A stretch of 64,000 nt of DNA from Escherichia coli (GCF_003334815.1 NZ_QOWO01000005.1); one strand, 5' to 3'; counted from the first letter of the stretch, positions 2,643 to 51,107 are shown. Made by a program: numbers and translations. The notes: generated from the sequence alone by a model not told the origin.

Positions 2643-5570
<2,928 letters not shown>

Positions 5571-39314: not shown

Positions 39315-39486
39315 GTAGGCCTGATAAGACGCGTCAGCGTCGCATCAGGCATCTGAGCATGGTGTCGGATGCGACGCGAGCGCCTTATCCGACCTACGGT
39401 TCAGGTCCGTAGGCATGATAAAACGCGTCAGCGTCGCATCAGGCATCGGCACACAGTGCCGGATGCACCGCGCGACGCATCCGACA
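39315..39486. repeat. BIME cluster (four REPs) between codB upstream region and prpE 3' end
   Basis: gtaggcctgataagacgcgtcagcgtcgcatcaggcat / gtcggatgcgacgcgagcgccttatccgacctac / gtaggcatgataaaacgcgtcagcgtcgcatcaggcat / gccggatgcaccgcgcgacgcatccgac. Confidence 0.88.
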
Positions 39487-44072: not shown

Positions 44073-44114
44073 GTTGTCCTCGTCATTGTTATCATTTGTA
44101 GGGTCGAGATTGTT

Positions 44115-44393
44115 GTCGGATGCGACGCTATGCGTCTTATCCGACCTACAGTTCAGTTCACCCCGTAGGCCTGATAAGTCGCGTCAGCGGCGCATCAGGC
44201 ATCGGTTGTCGGATGCGACGCTATGCGTCTTATCCGACCTACAGTTCAGTGCACCCCGTAGGCCTGATAAGTCACGTCAGCGGCGCATCAGGCATCGGTT
44301 GTCGGATGCGACGCCATCCGTCTTATCCGACCTACAGTTCAGTGCACCTCGTAGGCCTGATAAGTCGCGTCAGCGACGCATCAGGCATCGGCT
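44115..44393. repeat. Three tandem 93-bp BIME units (six REPs) inside the prpBCDE operon, between prpB and prpC
   Basis: gtcggatgcgacgc(t/c)at(g/c)cgtcttatccgacctacagttcagt.cacc.cgtaggcctgataagtc.cgtcagcg.cgcatcaggcatcgg.t starts at 44115, 44208 and 44301, an exact 93-bp period. Confidence 0.92.
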
Positions 44394-44418
44394 GTCGAAT
44401 ACAATCAACGGGCGTTTT

Positions 44419-47653: not shown

Positions 47654-48325
47654 ATGATGCAGTTAGTTCACTTATTTATGGATGAAATCACTATGGATCC
47701 TTTGCATGCCGTTTACCTGACCGTAGGACTGTTCGTGATTACTTTTTTTAATCCGGGAGCCAATCTCTTTGTGGTAGTACAAACCAGCCTGGCTTCCGGT
47801 CGACGCGCAGGGGTGCTGACCGGGCTGGGCGTGGCGCTGGGCGATGCATTTTATTCCGGGTTGGGTTTGTTTGGTCTTGCAACGCTAATTACGCAGTGTG
47901 AGGAGATTTTTTCGCTTATCAGAATCGTCGGCGGCGCTTATCTCTTATGGTTTGCGTGGTGCAGCATGCGCCGCCAGTCAACACCGCAAATGAGCACACT
48001 ACAACAACCGATTAGCGCCCCCTGGTATGTCTTTTTTCGCCGCGGATTAATTACCGATCTCTCTAACCCGCAAACCGTTTTATTTTTTATCAGTATTTTC
48101 TCAGTAACATTAAATGCCGAAACACCAACATGGGCACGTTTAATGGCCTGGGCGGGGATTGTGCTCGCATCAATTATCTGGCGAGTTTTTCTTAGTCAGG
48201 CGTTTTCTTTGCCCGCTGTGCGTCGTGCTTATGGGCGTATGCAACGCGTTGCCAGTCGGGTTATTGGTGCAATTATTGGTGTATTCGCGCTACGCCTGAT
48301 TTACGAAGGGGTGACGCAGCGGTGA
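47654..48325 (+). CDS. yahN: YahN, LysE/RhtB-family amino-acid exporter
   Basis: 223-aa ORF with about 6 TM segments. Recognised sequence. Confidence 0.9.
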   Translation: MMQLVHLFMDEITMDPLHAVYLTVGLFVITFFNPGANLFVVVQTSLASGRRAGVLTGLGVALGDAFYSGLGLFGLATLITQCEEIFSLIRIVGGAYLLWFAWCSMRRQSTPQMSTLQQPISAPWYVFFRRGLITDLSNPQTVLFFISIFSVTLNAETPTWARLMAWAGIVLASIIWRVFLSQAFSLPAVRRAYGRMQRVASRVIGAIIGVFALRLIYEGVTQR

Positions 48326-48341
48326 GCAGATAATTTACTCT

Positions 48342-48587
48342 CTACGTAATCAACCTGATTTGCCGAATCACGGCCATCGGCGATGATAGCCCCCGTAATG
48401 CGTGGTCCTTATTTCCGATAAGTTTACTTGAGTCTTTAGCTTCCCATTTCAGCCCACTCTCCCCTGTGTGGGCTTTTTTCATTGGTCTGCCCCATCCTGA
48501 ATAGCCAAACAATGGCAATGTTCCACTTTGCAGGGATGATAATAAGGGGATCTGATTCAGAAGAGTTTTGAAAAGTTGGACCGCCAT
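48342..48587 (-). CDS. yahM: YahM, annotated 81-aa hypothetical ORF (doubtful)
   Basis: Matches the K-12 yahM ORF I recall (MAVQLFKTLLNQIPLL...). However, it contains the opposite-strand yahN terminator, and its 5' end overlaps the tRNA-like element. Confidence 0.3.
   Translation of the reverse strand: MAVQLFKTLLNQIPLLSSLQSGTLPLFGYSGWGRPMKKAHTGESGLKWEAKDSSKLIGNKDHALRGLSSPMAVIRQIRLIT
48451..48479 (+). terminator. Rho-independent terminator, probably for yahN
   Basis: agcccac-tctcccctgt-gtgggct followed by ttttt, about 125 nt after the yahN stop. Confidence 0.75.
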
Positions 48588-48657
48588 CGAGGCCTCGAAC
48601 CCCGTACCATACAACAATCCTGGTTGTCGTCTGCTCTTCCTGATGAGCTAATGGCGG
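48577..48657 (-). ncRNA. tRNA-like element (cloverleaf with encoded CCA and a non-canonical anticodon arm); possible tRNA pseudogene or att remnant
   Basis: The minus strand reads CCGCCAT TA GCTC ATCAGGAA GAGC A GACG ACAAC CAGGATT GTTGT ATGGTA CGGGG TTCGAGG CCTCG ATGGCGG T CCA. It has a perfect 7-bp acceptor stem, a perfect 4-bp D stem, a 5-bp T stem and a TTCGA T-loop. Confidence 0.55.
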
Positions 48658-48999
48658 TTTTTGATATGAGCCTTACAGCATATTTTCTGTCAGGCTTGAG
48701 TGCGATGCGTAAGATACAGAAAAGACCCCACGCAAACATGATGGAATTATGATTTTTTTCATATGAATGTCAACCAACACATTCACAAAACATCTGCATG
48801 AGATCATTTTTTATACACCGCATGGCTGCGAAACCACTACTGGTGCTTTTTTAAGCGAAGTGTCGCCGATCACAACAAAATATCGGCGAAAAAAGAGATG
48901 GAATGCCAGTTGGCATACAGATATACAGATGAAATGATTACCTGCATTGCGATTCACTCTCAGGTGGAATAACAACTTGCAGGTGGAACCCTTTCTGAA

Positions 49000-49815
49000 C
49001 TAAAGAGTGTAGCGGATTTTAACGTGCTTATTTACAGGATAATATCTGTCACCTAATTCCTGCACTCTATTAGATATCCATTCATTTAATCGCGCATCAT
49101 CTCTGTATGTTTTTACGTCCAGAACAGAGAGCAATAACATCACCAGTGATTCAGGAAAAACAGGGTAGATATTTTTTAAGTGTAATAATAATCCATGCGC
49201 AAGCGCCTGCTTAATGGGCGCGTCTGTCTCCGGAATAGACGACATTTCGCGAAGCCATTTTTCCACATGCATACACTCTTTCCCTTTAGGGAAAATTCTC
49301 AGCAAAGGCATATGGTATTCAAGAAGAATACATTTGCAATCTGTTCGCACTGAATCGATAAACTGCACTAATTTCTTAAGCCCGGTAAAGCGTCCAGCCT
49401 GCACGTTTGCTTTAATATCAAGAAACGCATCATCCTGGTCATATACCCAAACTGTCCCTTTTTGATTTTCAAGTATGTGAAAAACAAACTTAACCGGGTG
49501 ATCAGGGTAATCCATCCAGTCATAAAATCCAGGGAAATCATTAAACTGCACATTTATGGTGAGTGCGTTATCGTCTGACCACTCACAGTCTCGTACGGCA
49601 GCCATGAGATGAATGAGTTTGTCGTCATCGACTAAATCATCACGACAATCATAAGGATAATCATAATATTGTTTAATCAAAACCTTGAATATATCGACAC
49701 AGGAAACCAGGGAGCTTTTGATATCCTCTGGTAACTGATTGTTTTTAACCGTATTAAGTATGCTTTGTTGCGTATATGGCATCAAATTATTGTGCGGAGC
49801 TTTTAATGATATCAT
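49000..49815 (-). CDS. yahL: YahL, acidic 271-aa protein of unknown function (low-GC gene)
   Basis: 271-aa ORF, recognised as yahL. It has no signal peptide or TM segment and no catalytic motif I can identify. Confidence 0.8.
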   Translation of the reverse strand: MISLKAPHNNLMPYTQQSILNTVKNNQLPEDIKSSLVSCVDIFKVLIKQYYDYPYDCRDDLVDDDKLIHLMAAVRDCEWSDDNALTINVQFNDFPGFYDWMDYPDHPVKFVFHILENQKGTVWVYDQDDAFLDIKANVQAGRFTGLKKLVQFIDSVRTDCKCILLEYHMPLLRIFPKGKECMHVEKWLREMSSIPETDAPIKQALAHGLLLHLKNIYPVFPESLVMLLLSVLDVKTYRDDARLNEWISNRVQELGDRYYPVNKHVKIRYTL

Positions 49816-49982
49816 CGCGATCTCTCTTAAATAAAAATAAACGTCGCAGATAATAAAGCTCTGATTAAACCAGGCACTATCAGAAATCGCTCATAACTAA
49901 CGTGTGAAGTATTGTGTACTGGAGGGCGTTAATTTAACAATTTAAATTTACGTTATAGGTTTTACTGCTACTTTGATATTAT

Positions 49983-50020
49983 TTCGCTCTCCTTAACTAA
50001 AAAGTTAAGTGGAGAGCGAA
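49983..50020. other. Long bulged hairpin between yahK and yahL
   Basis: ttcgctctccttaact-aaaa-agttaag(tg)gagagcgaa forms 16 paired bases with a 2-nt bulge. No U-tract lies on either strand. Confidence 0.6.
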
Positions 50021-50057
50021 GTTAATATGTTAAACCACAAGGTATTTATTAATTTTT

Positions 50058-51107
50058 TCAGTCTGTTAGTGTGCGATTATCGATAACAAAACGATATTTC
50101 ACATCACCGCGCAGCATTCGCTCATAGGCTTCATTAATTTGATCGGCCCGAATCATCTCTATATCAGCCACGATGCCATGTTCGGCGCAAAAATCGAGCA
50201 TCTCCTGAGTTTCTGGAATGCCGCCAATCATAGAACCGGCTATCGCACGGCGTTTCATGATCAGGTTGAAAACTTCCGGCGATTTATGCGGTGTCGCAGG
50301 CGCACCAACCAGCGTCATGGTGCCATCACGCTTCAGCAAGGTGGTAAAATCGTCGAGATTATGTGGCGCAGCTACTGTATTCAAAATGAAATCGAAACTC
50401 TTCAGATGAGCCGCCATCTCATCGGCATTGCGTGAGTTAACAACTTCATCGGCCCCCAGGGCTTTTGCCGCTTCGCGTTTTGCCTCAGAAGTGGTAAATG
50501 CCACCACATGTGCCCCCATCGCGTGGGCCAGCTTAATCCCCATATGTCCCAGACCGCCGATGCCGACCACGCCCACTTTTTTACCCGGCCCGGCCTGCCA
50601 GTGACGTAGCGGCGAATACGTGGTGATCCCTGCACACAACAAAGGAGCCACCGCCGCCAGCTGCTCTTGCGGGTGACGAATACGCAGAACATATCGCTCA
50701 TGAACGACGATCTGTTGTGAGTAGCCGCCCAGAGTATGGCCCGGTTCGTCCGGCGTCGGCGAGTTATAGGTGCCGGTCATGTGATCACAGTAGTTTTCCA
50801 ACCCGTCTTCACACTCTTCGCAATGTTTACAACTGTCGACAATGCAGCCGACACCGACCAGATCGCCCGGCGCATATTTTTCTACCTGATCACCAACGGC
50901 TACCACACGCCCCACAATTTCATGACCCGGCACGCAGGGGTAAACCGTCCCCGCCCACTCGGAACGGACCTGGTGGAGAGCGGAATGGCAAACGCCACAG
51001 TAAGCGATTTCGATTTTGACATCATTCGGTCCCGGTTCACGCCGGGTGATATCCATCGGTTCAAGTGGTTGTTTAGCGGAATATGCACCAACAGCTTTGA
51101 TCTTCAT
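50058..51107 (-). CDS. yahK: YahK, NADPH-dependent aldehyde reductase (Zn-dependent CAD-family ADH)
   Basis: 349-aa ORF with GHE motif (PGHEIVG), structural-Zn Cys cluster CKHCEECEDGLENYC and Rossmann GIGGLGH. The catalytic-site motif reads CGVCHSALH (see findings). Confidence 0.95.
   Translation of the reverse strand: MKIKAVGAYSAKQPLEPMDITRREPGPNDVKIEIAYCGVCHSALHQVRSEWAGTVYPCVPGHEIVGRVVAVGDQVEKYAPGDLVGVGCIVDSCKHCEECEDGLENYCDHMTGTYNSPTPDEPGHTLGGYSQQIVVHERYVLRIRHPQEQLAAVAPLLCAGITTYSPLRHWQAGPGKKVGVVGIGGLGHMGIKLAHAMGAHVVAFTTSEAKREAAKALGADEVVNSRNADEMAAHLKSFDFILNTVAAPHNLDDFTTLLKRDGTMTLVGAPATPHKSPEVFNLIMKRRAIAGSMIGGIPETQEMLDFCAEHGIVADIEMIRADQINEAYERMLRGDVKYRFVIDNRTLTD

Follow-up and report, generated by a model that had tools for sequence, protein, structure and literature searches.

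The 64-kb stretch of Escherichia coli DNA analysed here (the window) raises the question of what is actually produced by a small gene annotated as coding for a 'putative transcriptional regulator' peptide, as this gene shows a nucleotide invariance of tRNA grade across the genus while its reading frame is mostly broken. The curated peptide annotation of xtpA conflicts with the evolutionary signal at the same place, and this conflict is what makes the locus of interest. Its features, in window coordinates, are as follows.

47654-48325, plus strand: yahN
48342-48587, minus strand: yahM open reading frame, with its ATG within the 3' acceptor strand of the tRNA-like element (ATGGCGGTCCA)
48557-48739, minus strand: xtpA open reading frame (60 aa; b4845 in MG1655), whose codons 28-54 are the tRNA-like element
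48568-48795, minus strand: genus-conserved block of 228 nt (promoter, leader, element and a trailer of ~9 nt), delimited by BLAST of Escherichia loci
48577-48657, minus strand: tRNA-like element of 81 nt, from an ARAGORN call and the minimum free energy (MFE) cloverleaf
48658-48738, minus strand: leader of 81 nt (N-terminal codons of XtpA) with two predicted hairpins, at ~48738-48701 and 48696-48669
48746-48773, minus strand: sigma-70-type promoter from a scan (11/12 matches), with the -35 TTGACA at 48773-48768, a 16-nt spacer and the -10 CATAAT at 48751-48746
49000-49815, minus strand: yahL
50058-51107, minus strand: yahK

Read along the minus strand from 48657 to 48577, the letters of the element are CCGCCAT T A GCTC ATCAGGAA GAGC A GACG ACAAC CAGGATT GTTGT ATGGTA CGGGG TTCGAGG CCTCG ATGGCGG T CCA. 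They give an acceptor stem (CCGCCAT/ATGGCGG) with 7/7 Watson-Crick pairs, followed by U8; a D stem (GCTC/GAGC) closing the D loop ATCAGGAA; a T stem (CGGGG/CCTCG, with one G-U pair) carrying the T loop TTCGAGG; and a 3' end made of a discriminator T (U73) and an encoded CCA. The canonical marks of a tRNA found here are U8, A14, G18-G19, the UUCGA motif of the T loop, the CCA end, the 7-bp acceptor and the D and T arms, and every cloverleaf feature that the initial annotation had listed at 48577-48657 (-) can be read in the sequence. The anticodon arm departs from the canonical form: four extra nucleotides (GACG) are inserted before a 5-bp stem (ACAAC/GTTGT) with the loop CAGGATT, which places A33 and U37 instead of U33 and a purine at 37. 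An aberrant hairpin has replaced this arm, and it can be drawn either with 7 bp and a 6-nt loop, as in the MFE fold, or with 5 bp and the 7-nt loop CAGGAUU.

ARAGORN, proposed as a check at the outset, called a single tRNA across the 64-kb window, at exactly 48577-48657 (-), and labelled it Ser(gga). The Rfam tRNA model RF00005, proposed alongside it, gave no match at the gathering score in the whole window, nor at E<=10 when 451 nt or 101 nt were searched, and PGAP annotates no tRNA at this locus in any of >5000 complete E. coli genomes. The MFE fold of the element is the cloverleaf (-29 kcal/mol, z = -1.9 against shuffles); taken alone, the folding energy of an 81-nt element is weak evidence and not decisive. 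It is the homology to phage tRNA genes, together with the extreme conservation, that sets the element beyond chance. Given that the Rfam tRNA model fails on it, recognition of the element by the tRNA machinery is not guaranteed.

A working, decoding tRNA, for example the tRNA-Ser(GGA) of the ARAGORN label, would account for the call itself, for the intact acceptor, D and T arms and for the encoded CCA. However, serine tRNA identity requires a long variable arm, and the element has none. The 4-nt insertion before the stem, the 6-nt loop in the MFE fold, A33 and U37 in the 7-nt-loop reading, and the lack of both an RF00005 match and a PGAP tRNA in those genomes likewise speak against decoding, which we regard as scarcely credible.

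The initial annotation had presented the element as unannotated and novel, overlapping a '60-aa track ORF'. This cannot be upheld, as the ORF is xtpA, which curated MG1655 (NC_000913.3) lists as b4845 at 345252-345434, between yahL and yahM, with the product 'putative transcriptional regulator XtpA'; UniRef gives the name 'Putative transcriptional regulator XtpA' to one member of the cluster to which the ORF's protein belongs. The window has a 60-aa ORF between yahL and yahM, a tRNA-like sequence inside it and an ATG at the predicted +1, and the title of Muto, Goto, Kurita, Ushida, Soma and Himeno 2022 (J Biochem 171:459, doi 10.1093/jb/mvac007) describes a leaderless xtpA mRNA that includes a tRNA-like sequence. 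The XtpA peptide is the reported effector, affecting the levels of the GcvB sRNA, and an overview of RegulonDB v12 names XtpA among the small proteins newly added. The 81-nt element is the tRNA-like sequence of xtpA, published in 2022, and hence is already known. Our data agree with that report in the locus, and its leaderless mRNA fits an ATG at the predicted +1. The two readings differ in the product: there the effector is the peptide, whereas here the frame is broken outside E. coli and the RNA is invariant.

Two minor observations concern the protein encoded in the window. A private SNP at 48732 turns Val3 of XtpA into Ala (GCG), where MG1655 and five other E. coli strains have GTG, and in the protein collection the exact window XtpA protein was found on one contig only.

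For comparison across species, loci were fetched with YahN as the anchor from other Escherichia species, Citrobacter, Salmonella and others, with each non-coli lineage represented by one genome. At these YahN-anchored loci the element is absent outside Escherichia. Within the genus it is identical at 81/81 positions in E. albertii, E. ruysiae, E. whittamii, Escherichia sp. E1V33 and the divergent 'E. coli' SCPM-O-B-8794. At the four-fold degenerate sites of yahN, 42-48% of positions differ between K-12 and each of these five lineages; the neutral expectation for the element is about 34-39 changes/81 nt per lineage, with a probability of ~1e-20 of seeing none. The Escherichia alignment has 33/81 variable columns in the leader and 1 in the element.

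The whole 228-nt block stands out in the same way, with an identity of 90-93% vs 84-88% for yahN and yahK (BLAST), and sequences beyond the -35 (upstream) and >10 nt past the CCA are essentially unalignable across species. The body of yahM and yahL are missing in E. ruysiae, E. whittamii and E1V33, and the 228-nt block is kept in all three. Its upstream neighbour is yahL in E. coli, yahK in E1V33, an SNF2 helicase gene in E. ruysiae and E. whittamii, and in E. albertii a yahK remnant followed by yahJ/yahI-like genes. The helicase gene codes for a 1079-aa SNF2-family protein and stands in for yahL and yahK (in E. ruysiae and E. whittamii, loci L015, 4971-8210 (-), and L016); it may belong to an inserted island.

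Two trivial causes of the invariance were considered. Recent transfer, or gene conversion from phage copies, was rejected, as it does not fit phage copies that reach at most 86% identity, a chromosomal-type hairpin that is found on no viral contig of IMG/VR, and flanks that have diverged in each species. Contamination of the non-coli assemblies by E. coli DNA is unlikely because of the same diverged flanks. As judged from the substitution counts, the invariance demonstrates purifying selection on the nucleotides of the cloverleaf throughout the genus.

This selection bears directly on the possibility that the element is a dead, functionless pseudo-tRNA left by an ancient lambdoid prophage. Such a relic would be expected to have a non-decoding anticodon arm and to escape RF00005, its sister copies in prophages are plainly decaying, and the element is lacking in ~5% of E. 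coli genomes. But 81/81 identity in five lineages against ~35 neutral changes expected (P ~1e-20 per lineage), a conserved promoter and a block kept through the turnover of its flanks are not what a relic should show, and we consider this explanation highly improbable. The initial annotation had offered a decayed tRNA gene as one interpretation: the tRNA ancestry stands, given the homology to phage argN and the non-decoding arm, but decay does not, with 81 nt invariant where ~35 neutral changes would be expected. A tRNA-mimic RNA, another of its interpretations, is the option that best fits the pattern of conservation.

Among E. coli records, 4822/5171 carry the exact 81-mer, and the complete genomes lacking the element amount to ~5%. 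The sequence is reportedly similar to a phage Arg-tRNA and is said to be conserved in all E. coli strains. Among E. coli variants of the element, that of O157 alone is common; in it, a T-stem G-U pair becomes G-C. The Shigella flexneri element has one disruptive change. In Escherichia sp. MOD1-EC7003 the equivalent of 48535-48972 is deleted, element and promoter included (L012, 4681-4891), and the locus is dispensable in at least one Escherichia lineage.

The reading frame behaves differently from the nucleotides. Codon 4 of XtpA is TAG in SCPM-O-B-8794, E. ruysiae, E. whittamii and E. albertii and AAG in E1V33; no sequences but those of E. coli and Shigella have TGG there. A 1-nt insertion (+1 frameshift) directly before the element is seen in both E. 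ruysiae and E. whittamii, and E. ruysiae is also without the xtpA ATG. The N-terminal 27 codons differ between K-12 and E1V33 by 9 amino acids through 15 nt changes. Among 15 E. coli XtpA protein variants, substitutions occur only at residues 3-27 or 58-59 and none in 28-54. The ORF is intact in every E. coli/Shigella sequence sampled.

The published reading, in which XtpA is the sole functional product and the tRNA-like sequence is a leftover supplying codons 28-54, draws on what Muto et al. 2022 state in their title and conclude, on the curated CDS annotation, on the ATG placed exactly at the predicted +1, and on this intact ORF in all E. coli and Shigella sampled. It has to contend with a stop at codon 4 in 4/5 non-coli lineages, a frameshift in two and loss of the ATG in one, all with the 81 nt unchanged; with zero synonymous changes in 27 codons against 42-48% at yahN four-fold sites; and with N-terminal 27 codons that evolve freely. 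We therefore regard the peptide as an unlikely sole product. Stops and frameshifts in other species reject the 60-aa ORF as the source of the element's conservation, in agreement with the initial annotation, which had stated that no ORF explains it. The invariance is complete, synonymous sites included, and the frame is broken, which indicates that selection acts on nucleotides and not on the peptide, and this constraint is most simply read as selection on a tRNA-shaped structured RNA. The XtpA frame itself looks specific to E. coli, overlying what would be an older RNA gene.

The second ORF that overlaps the element fares no better. The yahM ORF is cut short in E. albertii and E1V33 and missing from E. 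ruysiae and E. whittamii, and it is probably not a conserved protein-coding gene; the doubt cast on it from the start is borne out by its lack of conservation outside E. coli. The ORF also crosses the yahN terminator hairpin (48431-48481) in antisense.

The initial annotation had pointed to a -35-like CTGACA hexamer. This hexamer sits within a predicted leader hairpin and is not the promoter; the near-consensus promoter is TTGACA-N16-CATAAT at 48773-48746 (-). The predicted +1 lies 7 nt past the -10 hexamer and is the A of the xtpA ATG, at 48739; an ATG at the predicted +1 gives the geometry of a leaderless mRNA. Across Escherichia species the promoter block is identical at 41-48/51 positions. 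Reg-seq confirms a 'yahM' promoter and TSS with IHF as a repressor, and gives no yahM coordinates in its text and supplement. The promoter that Reg-seq assigns to yahM is probably that of xtpA. In two further datasets, 'yahM' is among the differentially expressed RNAs of a small-RNA-enriched pool, and yahM and yahN are given as a pair of convergent transcripts that overlap.

When the RNA from 48739 to 48577 is folded as a whole, it forms the two leader hairpins and the cloverleaf (-55.8 kcal/mol, z = -3.1). A consensus fold of seven Escherichia sequences has the same architecture, with few compensatory changes in hairpin 2. Leader identity across species is 66-72/81, above the neutral expectation and far below that of the element. 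As the leader is more conserved than neutral sites, a longer functional RNA fits better than a 5' leader that is discarded, and the functional unit may be the whole ~160-nt RNA and not only a processed 81-mer.

The origin of the element was traced through its relatives. A plasmid match annotated 'tRNA-OTHER', lying between tRNA-Ile and tRNA-Arg, first pointed to a phage family, and the BLASTN search suggested in the initial annotation did find relatives: seven phage/plasmid copies are 77-86% identical to the element over 81-90 nt, with E down to 1e-19, at the position of argN. The homologues of phiP27, mEp460, pHX138, TL-2011c, PhiR49_2 and Evi sit between ileZ and argO, and the cluster lies 3' of Q or a DNA methylase gene and 5' of stx or lysis genes (phiP27, mEp460, TL-2011c, PhiR49_2, Evi). 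In the Yersinia phage YeP1, no other gene of tRNA type stands between Q and the homologue, which is followed by tRNA-Met and tRNA-Gly. Canonical members of 77 nt are annotated as argN tRNA-Arg in Stx2 phages (313 phage records). Copies of the argN-position family, each in the coordinates of its own locus, include:

L005, 3009-3085: argN-position family copy
L006, 3002-3079: argN-position family copy
L007 and L008, about 3001-3088: argN-position family copies

In the family alignment the acceptor stem, U73, CCA and the D and T arms are common, and the anticodon arm varies. Homology of the chromosomal element to every phage copy is limited to 48665-48577, that is, to the element and 8 nt upstream, and stops at the CCA. 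The element and canonical argN of Stx/lambdoid phages have in common CCGCCAT/ATGGCGG, U73 and CCA, a D arm with A20 and the T arm. They differ in that argN has 77 nt and a normal anticodon loop (UCG in PhiR49_2), whereas the window element has the 4-nt insertion and no usable anticodon loop. The aberrant centre GAGCAGACGACA...TTGTTG (GACGACA...TTGTTG) is common to the window element and the phiP27/mEp460/pHX138 type, whose arm forms a hairpin of 7 bp around a 3-nt loop; this points to common descent of the element and the phiP27/mEp460 type after the anticodon was lost. As far as sequence comparison reaches, these relationships show that the element descends from the argN-position gene of the ileZ-argN-argO cluster of lambdoid/Stx phages, and that the source lineage already had its anticodon arm replaced by a non-decoding hairpin.

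The anticodon region of the family is changeable in other copies also. The loop is UCG in PhiR49_2 and in Stx2 argN, CUUGGAA in TL-2011c and CCUUUAA in Evi, and the annotations differ accordingly (tRNA-Lys for the PPompW copy, 'Pseudo-TTG' for YeP1), with the acceptor, D and T arms unchanged. The pattern resembles a single gene lineage in which the anticodon has been switched or has decayed. A literature search on ileZ/argN/argO found nothing.

The chromosomal copy differs from its phage relatives in setting and in state. Phage argN is part of a tRNA cluster, whereas the window element is solitary on the chromosome and has a promoter of its own, between yahL and yahM/yahN and with no flanking tRNAs or phage genes; alignment detected no remnant of ileZ or argO beside it. 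The phiP27/mEp460-type pseudo-tRNA (PGAP 'tRNA-OTHER') is decaying in prophages, whereas on the chromosome the copy has stayed intact and invariant. When IMG/VR was scanned for the aberrant arm, >120 loci came up, and the chromosomal-type hairpin was on no IMG/VR contig. In the dominant forms the T loop is lost (GGGGGCGGGTCCCC) and poly-G tracts of G5 to ~G17 are present, and uncompensated acceptor mismatches and truncations are also seen among these prophage copies. Where poly-G replaces the T loop of the prophage pseudo-tRNA, between ileZ and argO (L045-L164, e.g. L077, L087 and L108), the tract is slippage-prone.

The place of the element on the chromosome suggests one more explanation, an integration-site (att) scar at the edge of a low-GC yahL-yahM insertion, as the initial annotation had also considered. 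The element does lie at the boundary of a variable segment, with the yahM body present or absent from ~9 nt after the CCA, and low GC spans 48400-50200. Its 3' half, however, is unrepeated across the 64-kb window, which leaves the proposed direct repeat without a counterpart; no integrase is nearby, and YahL and YahM are without phage relatives. Far from being a 3' fragment, the element forms a full-length cloverleaf and has a promoter of its own, and purifying selection is not expected on an att scar. We judge an att remnant to be very improbable.

We consider it probable that the tRNA-like element of xtpA is derived from phage argN, that its nucleotides and not its frame have been kept, and that its product is a tRNA-shaped RNA module. 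Transcription from the sigma-70 promoter would start on the A of the xtpA ATG, as predicted, and the transcript would carry the 81-nt leader, predicted to form two hairpins, and then the 81-nt cloverleaf with CCA at its end. The conserved product would be a tRNA-shaped RNA in which the acceptor/T-arm helix, the D/T-loop elbow and the CCA end are intact, and which might be recognised by tRNA-binding machinery. It could act either after RNase P-type maturation to ~81 nt, or while still part of the longer transcript, as one of its domains. Within E. coli proper, translation of this RNA as a leaderless mRNA into XtpA is also reported, and XtpA is reported to affect GcvB levels. For a more specific version we see the chances as about even: that the product genus-wide is a tRNA-shaped non-coding RNA from an anticodon-less argN lineage; that the XtpA frame was opened only in E. 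coli/Shigella; and that the GcvB phenotype of a delta-xtpA strain might reflect the loss of the RNA and not that of the peptide.

If the reading that we prefer is true, E. coli K-12 carries a conserved, phage-derived tRNA mimic, and XtpA would clearly exemplify how a protein frame can arise over a structured RNA gene. It would then be necessary to assign the 'yahM promoter' of Reg-seq to a tRNA-shaped RNA, and the yahM ORF would be more doubtful still.

Known systems offer partial likenesses. As in tmRNA (SsrA), the xtpA RNA would combine a tRNA-like domain and a translated frame in a single RNA. tmRNA builds its tRNA-like domain from its 5' and 3' ends, this domain receives alanine, and entry into the frame occurs in trans; unlike tmRNA, the xtpA element has no G3-U70 pair, and no Rfam tmRNA match was found in the 64-kb window or in 451 nt. 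The closest functional precedent documented is tRNA-Other of Bacillus cereus (Rogers et al. 2012, PMC3399842), although the likeness is of kind only: sequence and organism are unrelated, and no overlapping peptide has been reported there.

Three further ideas were tried and given up. The element might have acted as a GcvB sponge through pairing of its CA-rich hairpin strand (ACGACAAC) with the GcvB R1 seed, but the duplex energies were no better than controls: for full-length GcvB and R1 duplexes against shuffles or random genomic windows, the fraction equal or better was 0.49, 0.67 and 0.86. The leader as a decayed ileZ was rejected, as local and global alignment scores were no better than those of shuffles. 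YahL and YahM as phage cargo found no PHROG, Pfam or phage tblastn matches. Elsewhere in the window, five Rfam naRNA4 (REP-derived) matches lie at 17017-17094, 19124-19300, 39318-39394 and 44112-44400, with three tandem 103-nt copies at 44112-44400; these matches and copies are ordinary REP/BIME arrays.
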